Source: a virus (lineage: Duplodnaviria > Heunggongvirae > Uroviricota > Caudoviricetes). Taken from it: a stretch of 24,678 nt of DNA. This document shows, piece by piece, positions 111-22,100 of the stretch (position 1 is the first letter of the stretch; each line of letters begins with the position of its first letter). The notes under the pieces were generated by a model. It was not told the origin of the DNA. It saw only the letters and a program-made list of their open reading frames with translations, and did no database searches. Both the position numbers and the translations under genes were made by a program. The DNA lies in the IMG/VR virus record IMGVR_UViG_2690316166_000006, positions 1-24,678 of that record; one strand, given 5' to 3'.

Positions 111-3100
111 ATGGCAGTAAAGATTTCAGGTGTACTGAAAGACGGCACAGGAAAACCGGTACAGAACTGCACAATCCAGCTGAAAGCAAAACGTAACAGC
201 ACCACGGTGGTGGTGAACACGCTGGCCTCAGAAAATCCGGATGAAGCCGGGCGTTACAGCATGGACGTTGAGTACGGTCAGTACAGCGTTATTCTGTTGG
301 TGGAGGGATTCCCGCCGTCACATGCCGGGACCATCACCGTGTATGAAGATTCTCAACCCGGTACGCTGAATGATTTTCTCGGTGCCATGACGGAGGATGA
401 TGCCCGTCCGGAGGCACTGCGACGTTTTGAACTGATGGTGGAAGAGGTGGCGCGTAACGCGTCCGCGGTGGCACAGAACACAGCAGCCGCGAAGAAGTCA
501 GCCAGCGATGCCAGCACATCAGCCCGTGAGGCGGCAACCCATGCGACTGATGCTGCAGGCTCAGCACGCGCAGCCAGCACGTCAGCCGGACAGGCCGCGT
601 CGTCGGCTCAGTCAGCGTCTTCCAGCGCAGGAACGGCATCAGCAAAGGCCACTGAAGCATCAAAAAGTGCTGCCGCTGCAGAGTCCTCAAAAAGCGCGGC
701 GGCCACCAGTGCCGGTGCCGCGAAAACGTCTGAAACGAATGCTGCAGCGTCACAACAATCAGCAGCCACTTCTGCATCCACCGCGACCACGAAAGCGTCA
801 GAAGCTGCCACCTCAGCCCGGGATGCGTCGGCTTCAAAAGAGGCGGCAAAATCATCAGAAACGAGCGCAGCCTCGAGCGCCAGTAGTGCAGCTTCCTCGG
901 CAACGGCGGCAGGCAATTCCGCGAACGCGGCAAAAACGTCCGAGACGAACGCTAAGTCTTCTGAAACGGCAGCGGAACAGAGTGCCTCCGCAGCAGCAGA
1001 CTCAAAAACAGCGGCTGCATCATCTGCCAGCGCCGCGTCAACAAGTGCCGGGCAGGCCTCAGCCAGTGCCACCGCTGCCGGAAAGTCGGCAGAAAGTGCC
1101 GCATCGTCTGCTTCAACAGCCACAACGAAGGCTGGCGAAGCCACTGAACAGGCCAGCGCAGCAGCGAGTTCTGCTTCCGCAGCGAAGACATCCGAAACGA
1201 ACGCGAAAGCGTCGGAAACCAGCGCAGAATCCTCAAAAACGGCTGCCGCATCGTCCGCCAGTTCGGCGGCGTCATCGGCATCATCTGCGTCTGCTTCAAA
1301 AGATGAGGCGACCAGACAAGCGTCAGCAGCGAAGAGCAGCGCTACGACGGCATCCACGAAGGCGACAGAGGCAGCTGGCAGTGCGACGGCGGCAGCTCAG
1401 AGCAAAAGTACGGCGGAATCCGCGGCAACGCGCGCCGAGACAGCAGCTAAACGGGCAGAGGATATTGCATCCGCCGTGGCGCTTGAGGATGCAAGTACGA
1501 CGAAAAAGGGGATAGTACAGCTCAGCAGTGCGACCAACAGTACGTCTGAAACGCTGGCGGCAACGCCAAAGGCAGTAAAATCAGCCTATGACAATGCAGA
1601 GAAACGTCTGCAGAAAGACCAGAACGGCGCTGATATACCCGATAAGGGACGCTTCCTGAACAACATTAACGCGGTCAGTAAAACAGACTTTGCTGATAAG
1701 CGTGGTATGCGTTATGTGCGGGTTAACGCTCCTGCAGGTGCAACATCTGGAAAATATTATCCTGTTGTTGTTATGCGTTCTGCTGGCTCAGTAAGCGAAC
1801 TGGCATCAAGGGTCATTATCACCACGGCAACGCGAACCGCAGGCGATCCTATGAATAACTGCGAGTTTAACGGATTTGTTATGCCTGGTGGCTGGACTGA
1901 CAGGGGGCGTTATGCTTATGGAATGTTCTGGCAATATCAAAACAATGAACGAGCCATCCACTCAATAATGATGAGTAATAAGGGCGATGATTTGCGCTCT
2001 GTGTTCTATGTTGATGGCGCTGCTTTCCCTGTTTTTGCGTTTATCGAAGATGGCCTGTCAATATCCGCACCTGGTGCTGATCTCGTTGTTAATGATACGA
2101 CCTATAAGTTTGGGGCAACAAATCCAGCGACTGAATGTATCGCGGCGGACGTTATCCTTGATTTTAAGAGTGGGCGTGGTTTTTATGAGTCTCATTCGTT
2201 AATCGTTAACGATAACTTGTCGTGCAAAAAACTTTTTGCCACAGACGAAATTGTAGCGCGTGGTGGTAATCAGATTCGAATGATAGGTGGGGAGTATGGT
2301 GCATTATGGCGTAATGATGGCGCTAAAACTTACCTGCTGCTTACCAATCAAGGTGATGTTTATGGTGGCTGGAATACATTAAGACCGTTTGCTATTGATA
2401 ACGCAACCGGCGAACTGGTTATTGGAACCAAACTGTCCGCAAGTCTGAACGGTAATGCATTAACAGCAACAAAGCTGCAAACGCCAAGACTGGTTTCTGG
2501 TGTTGAGTTTGATGGTTCCAGAGATATTACTTTAACCGCTGCGCATGTTGCTGCTTTTGCCAGAAGAGCAACGGATACGTATGCCGATGCGGATGGGGGC
2601 GTTCCCTGGAATGCCGAATCAGGCGCTTACAATGTCACCCGCTCTGGCTACAGCTATATTCTGGTTAACTTCTATACCGGAGTCGGAAGTTGCCGGACCT
2701 TGCAGATGAAGGCGCATTACAGAAATGGTGGTCTGTTCTACCGTTCTTCAAGAGACGGTTATGGTTTTGAGGAAGATTGGGCAGAAGTTTATACCTCGAA
2801 AAATCTTCCACCAGAAAGCTACCCAGTCGGCGCACCAATCCCGTGGCCATCAGATACCGTTCCGTCTGGTTATGCCCTGATGCAGGGGCAGACTTTTGAC
2901 AAATCTGCATACCCGAAACTTGCAGCGGCTTATCCGTCAGGCGTTATTCCTGATATGCGTGGCTGGACGATTAAGGGCAAGCCCGCCAGTGGTCGTGCCG
3001 TATTGTCTCAGGAACAGGACGGCATTAAATCGCACACCCACAGCGCCAGCGCATCCAGTACGGATTTGGGTACGAAAACCACATCGTCGTTTGATTACGG

Positions 3101-3509
3101 TACTAAATCCACGAATAACACTGGTGCGCATACCCATAGTTTAAGTGGCAGCACGAATGCAGCTGGTAATCACAGCCATAGAGATGGCCGTCGATTTAAC
3201 CCCAGTGTTTTTAAAGATACTTATCAATATGGTTATACAAGCTCAGGTCAAAATACTTGGGGTGTACAAGGCTCAGTAGGTATGTCTACGGGGTGGTTAG
3301 CTAATACCAGTACAGATGGTAATCATAGCCACTCACTGTCCGGCACAGCAGCATCTGCAGGTGCACACGCACATACTGTCGGTATTGGTGCACACACGCA
3401 CTCCGTTGCGATTGGTTCACATGGACATACCATCACCGTTAACGCTGCTGGTAACGCGGAAAACACCGTCAAAAACATCGCATTTAACTATATTGTGAGG
3501 CTTGCATGA
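111..3509 (+). CDS. stf: Side tail fibre protein (lambda Stf / Rac StfR-like, about 1130 aa) with a divergent central region
   Basis: ORF 105..3509. The N-terminus [26 protein letters not shown] and the Ala/Ser-rich repeats match lambda Stf from memory. The C-terminus has His-rich HxH repeats ([43 protein letters not shown]) and ends [11 protein letters not shown]. The ATG at 111 is preferred over the GTG at 105. Confidence 0.9.
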
Positions 3510-4396
3510 TTACGCTCATTCTTTCTGCACCAGTAACAGAAATGGCTGAAGCATTTAAGCGGGTATTTGCAAACGCAGATAATGTGAATATTGTCGGAAA
3601 GCCATTTGAAACAATCAGAGAATTTGACTGCATGGTAAGTGCGGCAAATAGTTTCGGCCTGATGGATGGCGGCGTTGATGCCGCCATTACCGCATTCTTC
3701 GGTACTCAGTTACAGTCCCGCGTTCAGAATCATATTCTTCGTGAATATCTAGGCGAACAGCCTGTAGGTTCTGCATTTGTAATTGAAACGGGGCATAATC
3801 ATCACCCCTGGCTGGTACATGCGCCAACAATGCGTGTTCCGCTGACAATTGACGGAACAGACGCTGTATATAATGCAACCTGGGCCGCTCTGCTTGCCAT
3901 CTTTCAGCACAATAAAAACGCAACGACAGACAGGAAAATAAAGACGGTGGTATTCCCTGCAATGGGGGCCGGATGTGGTCAGGTTCCGTTTGAAAGCGTT
4001 GCCTGGCAAATGAAGCAGGCATGGGATAACTTTAATAAGAAAACAGAATCAATTTACTGGGAATACGCACACTCCCGCCAGTCGGCAGTATTTGGCACAT
4101 ATGCATACTGTCCGGGTAATTCTGTTTGCCGTTATGCGGATACTAAATATATTGGATGCGGCGATTATCGGACGTATTGCTCACGTTCCGGGCAGTTCTG
4201 TATTAGCCATGTGCATCAGGCTGATGACGTGCTGACTAATAATCGCTCTCGCCCTGATTCGCATACACACCGGTTTAATCCAGAAAATCCCGTAGGCAAT
4301 CTCACCTCTGGCGCACATAGCCACGGAAGTAGCATCGTTATTGGTGCTCCCACCCATACGCTCAATAAACAATATTCTGTCTCTGATATTAAGTAG
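3506..4396 (+). CDS. Macro-domain (ADP-ribose binding/processing family) protein with a Cys/His-rich C-terminal region resembling a fibre tip
   Basis: ORF 3506..4396, 296 aa. Motifs [26 protein letters not shown] and [22 protein letters not shown] fit the macro-domain signature. The C-terminus ([25 protein letters not shown]) echoes Stf tip motifs ([19 protein letters not shown]). The start ATGA overlaps the stf stop, with GAGG 5 nt upstream. Confidence 0.7.
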
Positions 4397-4404
4397 AGGT
4401 GAAC

Positions 4405-4980
4405 ATGGATTTTAGAATGACTGAACAACCACGGACCATAAAAATTTATAATTTGCTGGCCGGAACTAATGAATTTATTGGTGAAGGTGATGCATACATT
4501 CCACCTCATACAGGTCTACCTGCAAACAGTACCGATATTGCACCGCCAGATATTCCGGCAGGCTTCGTGGCTGTTTTCAACGGTGATGATGCATCGTGGC
4601 ATCTCGTTGAAGATCATCGTGGTAAAACGGTTTATGACGTGGCATCAGGGGACGCGTTATTTATTTCTGAACTCGGTCCGTTACCGGAAAATGTTACTTG
4701 GTTGTCGCCGGAAGGGGAATATCAGAAGTGGAACGGTACAGCTTGGGTGAAAGATGCAGAAGCAGAAAAACTATTCCGGATCCGGGAGGCGGAAGAAACA
4801 AAAAACAGCCTGATGCAGGTAGCCAGTGAGCATATTGCGCCGCTTCAGGATGCTGCAGATCTGGAAATCGCAACGGAGGAAGAAACCTCGTTGCTGGAAG
4901 CCTGGAAAAAGTATCGGGTGTTGCTGAACCGTGTTGATACATCACTATCTCCAGATATCGAGTGGCCAAGTCAACCATAA
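4405..4980 (+). CDS. tfa: Tail fibre assembly protein (lambda Tfa family)
   Basis: ORF 4399..4980. The sequence [57 protein letters not shown] and the C-terminal [24 protein letters not shown] match lambda Tfa from memory. The ATG at 4405 is preferred, with GAGGTG upstream. Confidence 0.9.
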
Positions 4981-4985
4981 ATCAA

Positions 4986-5008
4986 TATCCCCTGCAATGC
5001 AGGGGATA
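4986..5008. terminator. Hairpin between the convergent tfa and sopB genes; likely bidirectional terminator
   Basis: Perfect 10-bp stem tatcccctgc / gcaggggata with loop aat. Flanking U-tracts are weak on both strands. Confidence 0.45.
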
Positions 5009-5012
5009 GTTC

Positions 5013-5978
5013 TTAATTATCAGTAGATTGTTCCTCTAGTAACAACTCAATTCTGCTTAGTATTTCTTTAGATATTTTGCGGCTATCAATTTTTATAGTT
5101 ACAAAATTACCTTTATATCTGGCCGTGATCCCTTCCCCATATTTTTTCTCGTCTTTTGTTTTTTCCTCGCCGCCAACCAGAACAGAGTCAGATAATATTT
5201 GTATAATCCGTGAAGCTTCTAAATCCTCGCCGTTTTTTTTAATTGCCAGAAGATGATGAGCAGCATTGCTCATGGCAGCCATGTTTTTTTTGTAAACCTT
5301 AAACAAAGAATCTCCAGCACGAGCTGACAGTTCTCCTGGATGATTGAAGATAGCTAATATATCTTTTGGTAGACCAGCTGTATTAATACAGCGAGTGATA
5401 ATATTTCTATCTATATTTTCAGCCTCGGCTAATGCTTTAACGTTACCATCAAAGTCATTTAGCTTGCGTAAGTATCTCTTTCCTCTTTCGTATGCACTAA
5501 TAGGCCTATAATCGTTACCAATTTGGGATAACCAATGCATCTGTTCATCGTCGAGATCACCAATTAAGACGCGATAGTCACATCCTGTTAATATCGCTGC
5601 TTTTCTTCTACGTGAGCCGTCAGCGACTTCAACGATTCCAGATACTTTTCTGGCGAAAGCTGGATTTTGTTGTCCAGACGTTAGAAAAGATGGGATTAAA
5701 TCGGCTAGAGAGGATTCATTTAATAAATCTTGATCGCGTTCATTACCTAGCCATACCATTGTTGCCATTTCAACTTTATCTGCGGGAATTGTCTCTAACT
5801 TAAAGTTAACATTACGTCCGCATACTGGCAAAGTTATGCTGTTACCGGTTAATGAACTCAGTTGACGTTTTAAATCACCAACCATAGGTGATACGGGCTG
5901 ATGTTCAGGGGCATGATGATTATTACTCATAATGCGATTAATATCTGGAGCATTTTTTAGAAGAGAGCGCTGTTTCAT
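5013..5978 (-). CDS. sopB: Partition protein SopB (ParB-family centromere-binding protein, F SopB-like)
   Basis: 321 aa. Segments ITLPVCGRNVNFKLE, WLGNERDQDLL, LIPSFLTSGQQNPAFARKVSGIVEVADGSRRRKAAILTGCDYRVLIGDLDDEQM, NDYRPISAYERGKRY and LFNHPGELSARAGD match F-plasmid SopB from memory. Confidence 0.93.
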   Translation of the reverse strand: MKQRSLLKNAPDINRIMSNNHHAPEHQPVSPMVGDLKRQLSSLTGNSITLPVCGRNVNFKLETIPADKVEMATMVWLGNERDQDLLNESSLADLIPSFLTSGQQNPAFARKVSGIVEVADGSRRRKAAILTGCDYRVLIGDLDDEQMHWLSQIGNDYRPISAYERGKRYLRKLNDFDGNVKALAEAENIDRNIITRCINTAGLPKDILAIFNHPGELSARAGDSLFKVYKKNMAAMSNAAHHLLAIKKNGEDLEASRIIQILSDSVLVGGEEKTKDEKKYGEGITARYKGNFVTIKIDSRKISKEILSRIELLLEEQSTDN

Positions 5979-7144
5979 TATTCGTTCTCCCAGCGAGGTT
6001 TTATTAGATCATCAAAAATTTCTCGGCAAACAGGGTCCCATATAGAAACAGCATTTCTCCATGCATTCAATGTTGAACGTTGGTTTGCTGCTTGTTCAAA
6101 TACTGTTCTCATTTTTATCTGGCCTTTACCTACTTCATCGGTAACGCGTACAACCTGACGTAATACCATTGATCCCCATGTATTTCTTATTTGTTCTTCC
6201 ATCCATCGTGATTGATTCCCTGTAGTGAGACTATATTTAGTCAGAAGTAAGCGAACGGTTGGCTCAAATCCACCTAGGTCAACGCTTTCCAATAGATCGA
6301 GAAGCATTGTGAAAAACTGTAGAACAGAAGCGTAATCAAATAATTCTGCAGGTGTAGCAACAACAATAACGTCAGCGGCACAAACAACGTTAATGGTTCC
6401 TGTACCGAGGTTCGGAGCACTATCTATAACGATAACATCGTAGTTATCCCAAACTGATTCAATAGCTGCGCGCAGCATAAGGTGTGGAGGATGAGGCAAT
6501 TTACCCTGAGCATGATATTGCATGAGATCTGTTTCTATACGATGTAAAGCTAGGCAGCTAGGGATAATGTCTAGCCCAGGCCAACATGTTGGCTTTATAG
6601 CATATTCAGCGTTATCGCGTTCTCCTAAGTAAAATGGCAGTAAAGTATCCTCGGCATGGATATGTAAATCAGGAACATAACCGTGATACATAGAGGCCGT
6701 GCCTTGAGGATCGTTACCTTCAACCAAAAGAACACGATGACCTTGTAATGCTAACCATTGAGCTTGATGTACCGCAGACGATGTTTTATAAACGCCGCCT
6801 TTGTGTGACATAACGGCAAGCACAACAGGGTTTTTATCTTGTGGTCGTTGGTTTGGGTTGCCAAAAACTGCTCGCATACTGTTGATTTGATCTATGGTAT
6901 AACCAGCACGACGTTCAATTCTTCCTCTCATTTCAAAGTCAGGTGCAGGTAAACGCCCGCTCTTCTCAGCATCTCTAATTGCTTGAGGAGTTACACCAAT
7001 TAAATCTGCTACTTCAGTTATACCCCATCGGCGGGTGATACGCCGAGCTTCAGGACTATCATCACCGAATTGAGCGATAGCAATTGCTTGGGTCATTTCT
7101 TGACCTCTCGTAACACAATCTTGCAATAACTTTTTCAAAGACAT
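5978..7144 (-). CDS. sopA: Partition ATPase SopA (ParA/Walker-type, F SopA-like)
   Basis: 388 aa. Segments KGGVYKTS (deviant Walker A), LLVEGNDPQGTASMYHGYVPDLHIHAEDTLLPFYLGE, AIKPTCWPGLDIIPSCLALHRIET, VIVIDSAPNLG and WMEEQIR..WGSMVL match F SopA from memory. The stop overlaps the sopB start by 1 nt (TAATG). GGAGA lies upstream of the ATG. Confidence 0.93.
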   Translation of the reverse strand: MSLKKLLQDCVTRGQEMTQAIAIAQFGDDSPEARRITRRWGITEVADLIGVTPQAIRDAEKSGRLPAPDFEMRGRIERRAGYTIDQINSMRAVFGNPNQRPQDKNPVVLAVMSHKGGVYKTSSAVHQAQWLALQGHRVLLVEGNDPQGTASMYHGYVPDLHIHAEDTLLPFYLGERDNAEYAIKPTCWPGLDIIPSCLALHRIETDLMQYHAQGKLPHPPHLMLRAAIESVWDNYDVIVIDSAPNLGTGTINVVCAADVIVVATPAELFDYASVLQFFTMLLDLLESVDLGGFEPTVRLLLTKYSLTTGNQSRWMEEQIRNTWGSMVLRQVVRVTDEVGKGQIKMRTVFEQAANQRSTLNAWRNAVSIWDPVCREIFDDLIKPRWENE

Positions 7145-18214: not shown

Positions 18215-18814
18215 GTGACTAATCAGATTATTTACGACAGGAAACGGTCTGATGTAATGATTGACCTTGAAACAATGGGTACTAATACATGTGCTGCAAT
18301 TGTTTCTATCGGAGCAGTGTTTTTTTCTCCAGAAAGTGAGGAATTAGGTCCTACCTTTTATGTGCCAGTGAATCTCAGAAGCTCGATGTTGAATGGTGGT
18401 ATCGCCGATGGTGATACCATTTTATGGTGGTTGAAACAGAGCAAGGAAGCCAGAGCCGCTATTTGTACTAATGATGCCCTTGATATTAAGGATGCACTTT
18501 TTGAATTATCACACTTTATTACTTGCCATGCATGTAATTTAAAAAAGTTGAAAGTATGGGGAAATGGAGCAACGTTCGATAATGTAATTTTACGCGGTGC
18601 TTATGAGCGCGTTGGCTTAGCCTGTCCGTGGGAATATTTTAATGATCAGGATGTTCGAACAATCGTTAATCTTGGTCAGTTTATTGGTTTTAATCCTAAA
18701 AAAGATATGCCATTTGATGGCGAACGACACAATGCCCTGGCTGATGCTATTCATCAGGCTAAATATGTATCCGCAATTTTCTCCCGTCTTGTAAAAGGGC
18801 AAGGAGAATCGTAA
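18215..18814 (+). CDS. DEDDh-type 3'-5' exonuclease
   Basis: 199 aa. Exo I motif MIDLETMG and Exo III motif HNALADA. GTG start with GAGGA 8 nt upstream. Confidence 0.7.
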   Translation: MTNQIIYDRKRSDVMIDLETMGTNTCAAIVSIGAVFFSPESEELGPTFYVPVNLRSSMLNGGIADGDTILWWLKQSKEARAAICTNDALDIKDALFELSHFITCHACNLKKLKVWGNGATFDNVILRGAYERVGLACPWEYFNDQDVRTIVNLGQFIGFNPKKDMPFDGERHNALADAIHQAKYVSAIFSRLVKGQGES

Positions 18815-21501: not shown

Positions 21502-21789
21502 TCAATAGACGGCATTAATATTAATCGTTGCACCGCATGCTTGGGCATATTTTGATAAAGTTTTCATGCTTGCCCCTAAAGGATTGCTTTCCAGGCGGCT
21601 GATAGCTGACGGGCGCAATCCCATTCGTTCAGCCAGAGCTGACTTCGTTAAACCTGCTCTTTCCCTCATTTCGTATAACATTTCGACCATCTCCAGCTCT
21701 TTATCGGCCTCTTCATATCCTTTGATGGCTTCTGGAGTGTTGAGAAGTTTTTCTTTTACTTCGTTAAACGGGATGCCTTTCGCTTTCAT
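21502..21789 (-). CDS. HigA-like antitoxin (XRE-family HTH)
   Basis: 95 aa. LTKSALAERMGLRPSAISRLESNP is an HTH typical of HigA-type antitoxins. Sits downstream of, and overlapping, the toxin gene. Confidence 0.75.
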   Translation of the reverse strand: MKAKGIPFNEVKEKLLNTPEAIKGYEEADKELEMVEMLYEMRERAGLTKSALAERMGLRPSAISRLESNPLGASMKTLSKYAQACGATININAVY

Positions 21790-22100
21790 CAGTTCATCTC
21801 CTTCAGGCGAGTTCTGGCGATTTCGATAGCCTTCACCGGTGTTTTCTGTGTCTTTTTTACAAATGCATGCAATAGATAAATTTCGTTACCAGTCGCGTAG
21901 GCGTACAGCGTTCTTGCGATGTTTTTATCCCCTACTCGTAGTTCAAAAAGCCCTCCACCTATTACACGGCTATGGGGCATCTTCAGTTTGTTGCCTTCCT
22001 TCTCCAGTCGCTCAATTAATCTGGTCATGCGACCTCGCAAATCATCTGGTAGTTCAAGCAGTTCATCCAGTGCTGCAGGGTGGGTTATCACGTTAAACAT
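21789..22100 (-). CDS. HigB/RelE-superfamily toxin (phage Gp49-like family)
   Basis: 103 aa. LFELRVGDKNIARTLYAYATGNEIYLLHAFVKKTQKTP matches the Gp49-like killer-protein pattern. Toxin-first order is typical of higBA. Confidence 0.7.
   Translation of the reverse strand: MFNVITHPAALDELLELPDDLRGRMTRLIERLEKEGNKLKMPHSRVIGGGLFELRVGDKNIARTLYAYATGNEIYLLHAFVKKTQKTPVKAIEIARTRLKEMN

Follow-up and report, generated by a model that had tools for sequence, protein, structure and literature searches.

The 24,678-nt stretch of virus DNA analysed here (the window; positions 1 to 24,678 of IMG/VR record IMGVR_UViG_2690316166_000006) is an N15-like linear plasmid-prophage of E. coli. At the 3′ end of its late tail operon, between the side tail fibre gene stf and the tail fibre assembly chaperone gene tfa, it carries an intact gene, hereafter the macro gene, whose 296-aa product joins a macrodomain to a Cys-rich module and a short tail that, as judged from its sequence, reads as a head-less miniature fibre tip. 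We propose that the macro protein is a late accessory hydrolase of ADP-ribose derivatives, Macro2/Ymx7-like, that would serve in counter-defence and be equipped with a fibre-derived oligomerising tail; we put the probability of this reading at roughly 0.4. The family to which the protein belongs is already catalogued; among phage macrodomain accessory proteins, its architecture is a new variant.

Lambda-type operons run directly from stf to tfa, and the macro gene is therefore an insertion. A megablast search of 50,697 phage records with positions 2600-5000 of the window retrieved 62 records, lambda included, in which the stf 3′ end and tfa are 91-95% identical; the middle 891 bp, which is the macro gene, is present in only one record, the P2-like phage Chuche. 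In lambda, PhiR30_1 and about 60 other phage records, just “GCATAATGG” separates stf from tfa, and in junction alignments lambda and PhiR30_1 read ...GTGAGGCTTGCATAATGGCATTCAGAATG..., so that, compared with lambda, the window has the whole macro open reading frame (ORF) and an 8-nt linker placed between GCAT and ATGG. The macro ATG at position 3506 overlaps the stf TGA (3507-3509) by 4 nt (ATGA, in the context GCATGA) and sets a reading frame that is −1 relative to stf. The last stf codons include a GAGG (3497-3500), and in lambda this very element stands ahead of tfa. At the other end, the macro stop codon (4394-4396) is followed by GAGG (4396-4399) and by the tfa ATG at 4405, which aligns to the lambda tfa start MAFRMSEQPRTIK; the ORF finder lists GTG 4399 instead, which is unlikely to be where tfa truly begins. 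The insertion is thus clean and exact, and it reuses the lambda coupling signals. A first-pass annotation of the window, made from the sequence alone, had described a 296-aa gene that shares ATGA with the stf stop, interrupts the usual stf-tfa order and is followed by tfa with its own ribosome-binding site, and in all these points the alignments bear it out.

A Stf-macro fusion protein produced by programmed −1 frameshifting is excluded by a TAA codon at 3485-3487 in the macro frame, and the 18 nt before the macro ATG contain no slippery site. Promoter-like or terminator-like signals above shuffle expectation were not found within positions 2800-5200. The macro gene has no promoter or terminator of its own and is therefore expressed with the late genes.

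The macrodomain was recognised by Pfam profile PF01661 over aa 44-166 with an E value of 3.9e-18 and a score of 65.9 bits, above the gathering threshold of 22. A model built by AlphaFold2 (AF2) from an 87-sequence alignment had a predicted local distance difference test score (pLDDT) above 90 throughout aa 1-196 and displayed the three-layer alpha/beta macro fold; an earlier run on 18 close homologues was poor (pLDDT 61) and was discarded. The first-pass annotation had located macrodomain motifs in the N-terminal 170 aa. The motifs are indeed there (SAAN at aa 45-48, DGGVD at aa 54-58), but the fold extends to residue 196. Since the N-terminus forms strand beta-1 of the fold with a pLDDT of 97, the protein has no signal peptide. 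Residues of the ADP-ribose-contacting or catalytic type (N48, G55-G56, D58 and G158) are conserved in 87 relatives down to ca. 35% identity, as is the G154-G158 segment, and on this conservation rests the predicted binding of ADP-ribose. By both structure and profile, the closest relation of the domain is the Macro2/Ymx7 class of ADP-ribose-1″-phosphatases. No DarG signal was obtained with PADLOC (E 0.0077, 13.7 bits), BLASTP found no similarity to AdfM of PhiKZ (gp104; best E 0.84), and a tk.4 homologue came only at rank 38 when viral folds were searched with the macrodomain. The domain is under strong purifying selection, with omega values of 0.07-0.19 (here and below, by the Nei-Gojobori method).

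Taken alone, the macrodomain belongs to a large family of standalone proteins of about 200 aa (2320 representatives at E ≤ 1e-3). Its closest tail-less homologue, P0121, is a 207-aa protein, 63% identical, encoded at positions 4134-4757 of an uncultured phage contig (L092). It lies between ParB_N/methyltransferase genes on one side and a second ParB_N gene on the other, with the genes for a GpA-type terminase and a portal further downstream, and such accessory neighbours fit an intracellular enzyme of host-phage conflict; the contigs of more distant standalone homologues were mostly too short for an informative context. Distant homologues of the macrodomain, 30-37% identical, are also found in jumbo phages (Noxifer, PhiPA3 gp271, FBKp24, phiRSL1 and RTH11), where they are labelled “tail protein” or “tail assembly-like”, apparently by propagation from the enterobacterial gene context. 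PHROG 14717, “tail protein”, matches the macrodomain part only.

The module that follows the macrodomain contains residues that are invariant in the family alignment, C202, C208, C225, C232 and H237 (C-x5-C-x16-C-x6-C-x4-H). AF2 modelled it at a pLDDT of 55-75 as two hairpins, with strands at 211-217 and 220-225, and it is probably a metal-binding or disulphide knot of two beta-hairpins. Its omega values are 0.1-0.47. A profile search for the Cys-rich/HxH module in other proteins returned just same-family fragments or pseudogene pieces, one chimera with DUF1441 and a remnant in Salmonella phage SEN34. Among the homologues searched, the Cys/HxH extension is limited to the version that resides in the fibre cassette. 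The SEN34 remnant (L090, positions 4001-4174) is an isolated fragment that is 60% identical to residues 185-242 and has no macrodomain; it adjoins an O-antigen-type acyltransferase gene and an integrase gene and is probably what recombination left of a former cassette.

The tail keeps the rungs of fibre tips, and their order. The fibres encoded upstream of macro genes share a plan of an ascending HxH motif, a hypervariable head of 35-50 residues, 2-4 descending HxH rungs and a conserved end, and in the macro protein about 13 residues stand in place of the head. The first-pass annotation had pointed to a Cys/His-rich stretch of 70 C-terminal residues that echoes the Stf tip, with HTHRFNP (aa 253-259) and GAHSHG (aa 269-274). 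The last 100 residues do hold five Cys and seven His, but the Cys residues, at 202-232, lie upstream of that stretch. The echo of the Stf tip was not seen with the window's own Stf, to which the similarity of the tail is not significant (BLASTP E 0.2); C-terminal fragments matched the 14-residue repeat of Pfam profile PF03335 (Phage_fiber) only at E 1.5-3.6 and gave no match to the collar profile PF07484, and searches of Pfam, NCBIfam and PADLOC named nothing significant in the C-terminal 100 aa. The echo did emerge across the family. Family tails matched the HxH arrays of upstream fibres in a 51-sequence database with blastp-short E values of 1e-5 to 3e-9, HxH motifs were 2.7 times commoner in tails than in composition-matched shuffles (mean 2.09 vs. 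0.78), and at least two such motifs were present in 26 of 34 distinct tails. While tail length and sequence differ among clades, the rungs persist.

The tail is not a recent duplication of the adjacent stf 3′ end: at seven loci there was no DNA similarity beyond words of 8-18 nt, and the likeness must therefore be due to old homology or convergence. An analogy with T2-type gp38 adhesins was also dropped, as there are no glycine-rich motifs and the gene does not co-vary with fibre heads. Because the rungs are conserved, the coding region lies directly upstream of tfa and AF2 failed to fold the tail as a monomer, we consider it most likely a trimerisation module made of HxH rungs, possibly assembled with the help of Tfa.

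The macro family comprises 1712 matches in a set of 5.8 billion proteins, from Escherichia, Salmonella, Erwinia, Citrobacter and Enterobacter. Its members are labelled “macro domain-containing protein” or “phage tail protein”, the latter apparently from gene context only. The protein corresponds to PHROG 2613, a family of unknown function, essentially over its full length (E 5.8e-140; aa 1-266 on profile positions 1-271 of 274). Among the carriers are the E. coli phage Chuche, Salmonella phages SEN4/5 and, in S. Typhimurium LT2, the prophage Gifsy-1 (STM2588.1n). As a companion of stf and tfa the gene is recurrent, as the first-pass annotation had allowed it might prove to be, but not characterised: the literature on Gifsy-1 STM2587/2588.1n, on links between macrodomains and tail fibres, on SEN4/5 virion proteomics and on glycocyclic ADP-ribose (gcADPR) hydrolysis by macrodomains yielded no functional data for the family.

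We screened 85 loci with the macro motif. In each of the 70 where the upstream ORF was readable, from Escherichia, Salmonella and Erwinia, a fibre with the constant tip-module end ...NYIVRLA precedes the macro gene and overlaps its start by 4 nt. A lambda-type Tfa follows wherever downstream sequence is present, and at Salmonella loci the macro stop and the tfa start share an overlap of 4 or 11 nt. The elements that carry the gene are lambdoid (Gifsy-1), P2-like (Chuche, SEN4/5), P1-like and N15-like, and it also occurs on large IncFIB-typed plasmids that were not assigned to a phage type. This distribution is best explained by a single ancestral insertion of a phage macrodomain gene at the stf-tfa junction. 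Most loci have kept the macrodomain intact, even where identity between genera falls to 64%. The head loops of the fibres differ widely beside identical macro types, and the function of the macro protein is therefore independent of receptor specificity.

Interrupted copies of the gene were seen as well. In E. fergusonii plasmids pRHB41-C15_2 (L002) and pRHB31-C17_2 (L003), at positions ca. 5001-5900, the open frame has only 169 codons and is absent from the gene tables, and both copies appear to be pseudogenes between the fibre gene and tfa. The copy at L048 ends early, after 242 aa, and like those at L002 and L003 it is frameshifted; at L051 there is a partial copy in addition to the first. 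At L007 (5431-6573), L003 (6532-8218) and L095 (6493-7038), genes on the opposite (−) strand directly downstream of tfa encode a glycosyltransferase, an acetyltransferase or a lipopolysaccharide-modifying protein, which is typical lysogenic-conversion cargo.

A Macro2-like domain, the lack of a signal peptide, expression from the late operon and a non-structural nearest relative point to a late intracellular enzyme. That the protein processes ADP-ribose, as had been suggested in the first-pass annotation, would be the natural inference from its macrodomain. We envisage a cytoplasmic, ADP-ribose-binding enzyme, most likely a hydrolase, that would be made late in infection together with the fibre and its chaperone and would act on an ADP-ribose-derived small molecule at its 1″ position. 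Candidate substrates are ADP-ribose-1″-phosphate or immune signals derived from nicotinamide adenine dinucleotide (NAD), e.g., gcADPR or His-ADPR, and the setting may be that of NAD-consuming or NAD-signalling abortive-infection systems, which fire once structural proteins accumulate. The Cys4 knot and the head-less HxH mini-needle would most likely hold the enzyme together as a trimer through metal-bridged rungs, as in the tips of lambda Stf and T4 gp37, and Tfa, encoded immediately downstream, may aid the folding of the tail. After the insertion, the macro gene would have acquired, or retained, its fibre-tip-like C-terminal module and then travelled with the exchangeable tip-tfa cassette while selection kept the enzyme domain. 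On this account, the gene owes its persistence and spread to its place between the co-adapted halves, fibre tip and tfa, of the most frequently exchanged phage cassette.

The enzymatic part of the proposal draws on work with other macrodomains. Proteins of the Macro2 clade are reported to turn ADP-ribose-1″-phosphate into ADP-ribose and to be without de-MARylating activity (PMC6397177), and a comparative genomics survey predicted that phage Macro proteins target soluble ADP-ribose derivatives (PMC9503650). Of the two roles proposed in the first-pass annotation, degradation of nucleotide-derived signals thus fits the fold class better, while reversal of ADP-ribosylation suits it less, the domain being Macro2-like and not similar to AdfM. 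In sum, the original observation was confirmed and its interpretation is partly supported.

The only studied Macro2-type macrodomain is that of yeast Ymx7/YMR087W (PDB 1NJR), an ADP-ribose-1″-phosphate phosphatase. The phage domain is only ca. 20% identical to it; Ymx7 has no Cys-rich or HxH extension, and its context is a pathway for by-products of eukaryotic tRNA splicing, whereas the macro gene belongs to a late operon. The nearest functional precedent is AdfM (PhiKZ gp104, T4 Tk.4), likewise a phage macrodomain, in this case a standalone one, that takes part in host-phage conflict, where it counters DarTG2 (PMC13309987; bioRxiv 10.1101/2025.11.20.689424). AdfM is of another, DarG-like class and lacks a fibre-like tail; its substrate is ADP-ribosylated DNA, and its gene is not part of a fibre operon.

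The tail itself compares with tips of the lambda Stf/T4 gp37 type, with which it shares GxHxH rungs spaced by 9-11 residues, the succession of ascending rung, loop and descending rungs, and a coding region immediately upstream of a Tfa gene. It differs from them in that about 13 residues replace the receptor-binding head and in that the conserved terminal end, the shaft and the collar are missing. In the structure of the T4 gp37 tip (PDB 2XGF), the His residues coordinate Fe. Like lom, located between J and stf, and other accessory genes of the lambdoid tail region, the macro gene is a dispensable, patchy insertion in temperate phages. Classical morons carry a promoter and a terminator of their own and are expressed in lysogens; the macro gene lacks both, and its translation is coupled to that of its neighbours.

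Several results weigh against a conserved late hydrolase with an oligomerising tail. The assignment to the Macro2 class is borderline: Pfam profile PF14519 (Macro_2) scored 22.6 bits against a cut-off of 27, below threshold and over aa 42-100 only, although precomputed matches to it are present in many homologues. The NCBIfam equivalogs of MacroD/YmdB (PRK00431) were all missed (best 49 bits vs. cut-offs of 200-315), and in the “NAAN” motif of MacroD the first Asn is replaced by Ser (VSAAN), so that activity could be altered or the domain could be binding-only. The tail is weakly constrained, with omega at 0.3-0.5 and once at 0.96, is truncated or frameshifted in some members, e.g., P0107, and as a monomer (aa 240-296) was modelled with a pLDDT below 50 and no confident structure. 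In 5426 complete E. coli genomes, the macro gene was found at 131 places in 128 genomes and the stf 3′ end at 6368 places in 3599 genomes; the gene is thus present at ca. 2% of lambda-type fibre loci and absent from ca. 98%, so any benefit must be conditional. Pseudogenes or fragments of the whole gene are not rare (L002, L003, L048 and many fragments in Salmonella), late expression is too late for acting on defences against incoming DNA, and the silence of the literature counts on this side too.

Part of this evidence would suit a passenger, that is, a generic phage macrodomain gene that landed once at the stf-tfa junction, captured a fibre-like coding piece that serves no function of its own, and has been kept mainly by linkage to an essential mobile cassette, perhaps clearing ADP-ribose-1″-phosphate produced by RNA repair or 2′-phosphotransferase reactions. 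That there is a single, invariant junction hints at one ancestral event, the tail changes quickly, is of variable length and is missing from some members, degenerate copies are common, prevalence is low, and there is a housekeeping precedent for the Macro2 class (PMC6397177). We nevertheless consider this account unlikely, though deserving of attention, given the strong constraint on a macrodomain that stays intact across genera, the four invariant Cys residues and the HxH rungs that outlast a complete turnover of the surrounding tail sequence; the lack of DNA-level likeness to the neighbouring stf also speaks against a recent accidental duplication.

A second alternative takes the constant position of the gene, always between fibre tip and chaperone and translationally coupled, as a sign that the product is part of the virion; the first-pass annotation had likewise thought of an enzyme recruited to the fibre or co-delivered with the particle. 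A Tfa-folded HxH tail would dock the macrodomain on the fibre tip or on Tfa, and the enzyme, carried on the particle, would act extracellularly on a surface glycan that contains ribose or phosphate, or on an O-acetyl group, or be delivered somehow. The fibre-type HxH tail appears only in versions found at the stf-tfa location, and many members are called “phage tail protein” in databases, though apparently on context alone. Side fibres, however, remain extracellular, where ADP-ribose substrates are not known to exist, and how they could bring an enzyme into the cytoplasm is not obvious. The macro protein has neither a fibre-attachment domain nor a signal peptide, its type does not co-vary with the receptor-binding head, its closest relative is non-structural, and lambda-type fibres work without the gene, which 98% of loci lack. 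With no virion proteomics found in the literature, we regard a place in the particle as distinctly unlikely.

The position of the gene is made notable by Pseudomonas phages in which the side tail fibre and its chaperone set sensitivity to type II Thoeris (bioRxiv 10.64898/2026.06.04.730250), a suggestive precedent that serves as an analogy and not as evidence. On a more far-reaching and, in our estimate, improbable reading, the head-less tip would be a functional mimic that couples the enzyme to fibre biogenesis, either by being folded by Tfa or by binding a host sensor of fibre tip and chaperone; the macrodomain would then destroy or sequester His-ADPR or gcADPR where and when a fibre-sensing, Thoeris-like TIR system triggers. 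The protein would in that event be the first signal-degrading macrodomain to act as an anti-Thoeris factor and the first case of a counter-defence enzyme whose targeting relies on structurally mimicking the trigger. Finally, we give very little credence to a gene of benefit to the lysogen, whose expression from the prophage would protect or modify the host (e.g., as an antidote to an ADP-ribosylating toxin or in superinfection exclusion): the fibre-distal regions of temperate phages are classic lysogenic-conversion sites, other genes near fibre loci work so (lom, gtr and acyltransferase genes) and related loci neighbour glycosyltransferase, acyltransferase and pagK/gogB genes, but there is no promoter-like signal upstream of the macro gene, its overlap with the stf stop and, in Salmonella, with the tfa start ties expression to a repressed late operon, and no cognate ADP-ribosyltransferase was seen in the loci inspected.

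The reading of the macro protein as a late counter-defence hydrolase bears on how phages evade immunity. Phage macrodomains have only recently been shown to be counter-defence enzymes, with AdfM acting against DarTG2, and those are of the DarG class; the macro family is distinct from them in its Macro2-like class and its unprecedented fibre-tip-like extension. Locked into the most promiscuously exchanged phage cassette, the gene moves between otherwise unrelated lambdoid, P2-like, P1-like and N15-like phages. Were the protein to degrade NAD-derived immune signals or other ADP-ribose derivatives, it would represent a new enzymatic route of immune evasion, and host-range cassettes could then bring their own counter-defence, which matters for engineered fibre swaps in therapeutic phages. 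If it is a passenger instead, it offers a clean example of a gene hitch-hiking within a co-adapted module. Since the carriers include the model prophage Gifsy-1, genetically tractable systems are at hand.

The coordinates of the features discussed are collected below. The element was assigned from its gene content: E. coli plasmid pAH01-1 (46.9 kb), which matches the window at 99.9% identity, carries J, lom, stf, the macro gene, tfa, sopBA and a protelomerase gene, and the remaining genes of the window encode a RepA-like primase, a CI-type repressor, a Q antiterminator and a DNA methylase; the window is therefore an N15-like linear plasmid-prophage.

Features of the stf-macro-tfa region, in coordinates of the window
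Feature	Position	Strand	Remarks
stf, side tail fibre gene	111..3509	+	PF08400 E 1e-71, PF21446, PF07484
Stf tip module	3114..3509	+	ascending HxH, variable head loop, four descending HxH, conserved end
stf-macro junction GAGGCTTGCATGA	3497..3509	+	Shine-Dalgarno GAGG in last stf codons; macro ATG overlaps stf TGA
Macro ORF	3506..4396	+	296 aa, intact
Macrodomain	3506..4093	+	aa 1-196; motifs at aa 44-61, PTMR 107-110, GAGCG 154-158
Cys-rich module	4094..4225	+	aa 197-240; family alignment
Fibre-like tail (putative)	4226..4396	+	aa 241-296 and stop codon; SHTH, 13-residue loop, further rungs
tfa, lambda-type tail fibre assembly chaperone	4396..4980	+	PF02413 E 1e-43, phrog_105; alignment to lambda tfa
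Terminator-like hairpin, bidirectional	4986..5008		closes the late tail operon; convergent with sopB

The start of stf was mapped to ATG 111 from the annotated start in pAH01-1; the ORF finder gives GTG 105. The Stf protein combines the prophage tail-fibre N domain with a shaft rich in Ala and Ser, a gp34-like trimerisation domain and a collar domain. Within the shaft region, at window positions 334-1515, both strands contain long, overlapping ORFs in other frames (e.g., 508-1515 on the + strand and 608-1357 on the − strand); these are most likely artefacts of the biased, repetitive Ala/Ser-rich composition and not genes.

Elsewhere in the window, an ORF at 21789-22100 (−) encodes a Gp49-like protein of the HigB-type toxin family (PF05973, E 2.5e-29). 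It is directly abutted by a 95-aa ORF at 21502-21789 (−), and the pair looks like a toxin-antitoxin system of the plasmid-prophage. Downstream of the Q antiterminator gene, a protein with an Rv2179c-like 3′-5′ exoribonuclease domain (PF16473, E 4.3e-68) is encoded at 18215-18814 (+), followed by genes for a DUF977 protein and then for two DUF551 proteins.

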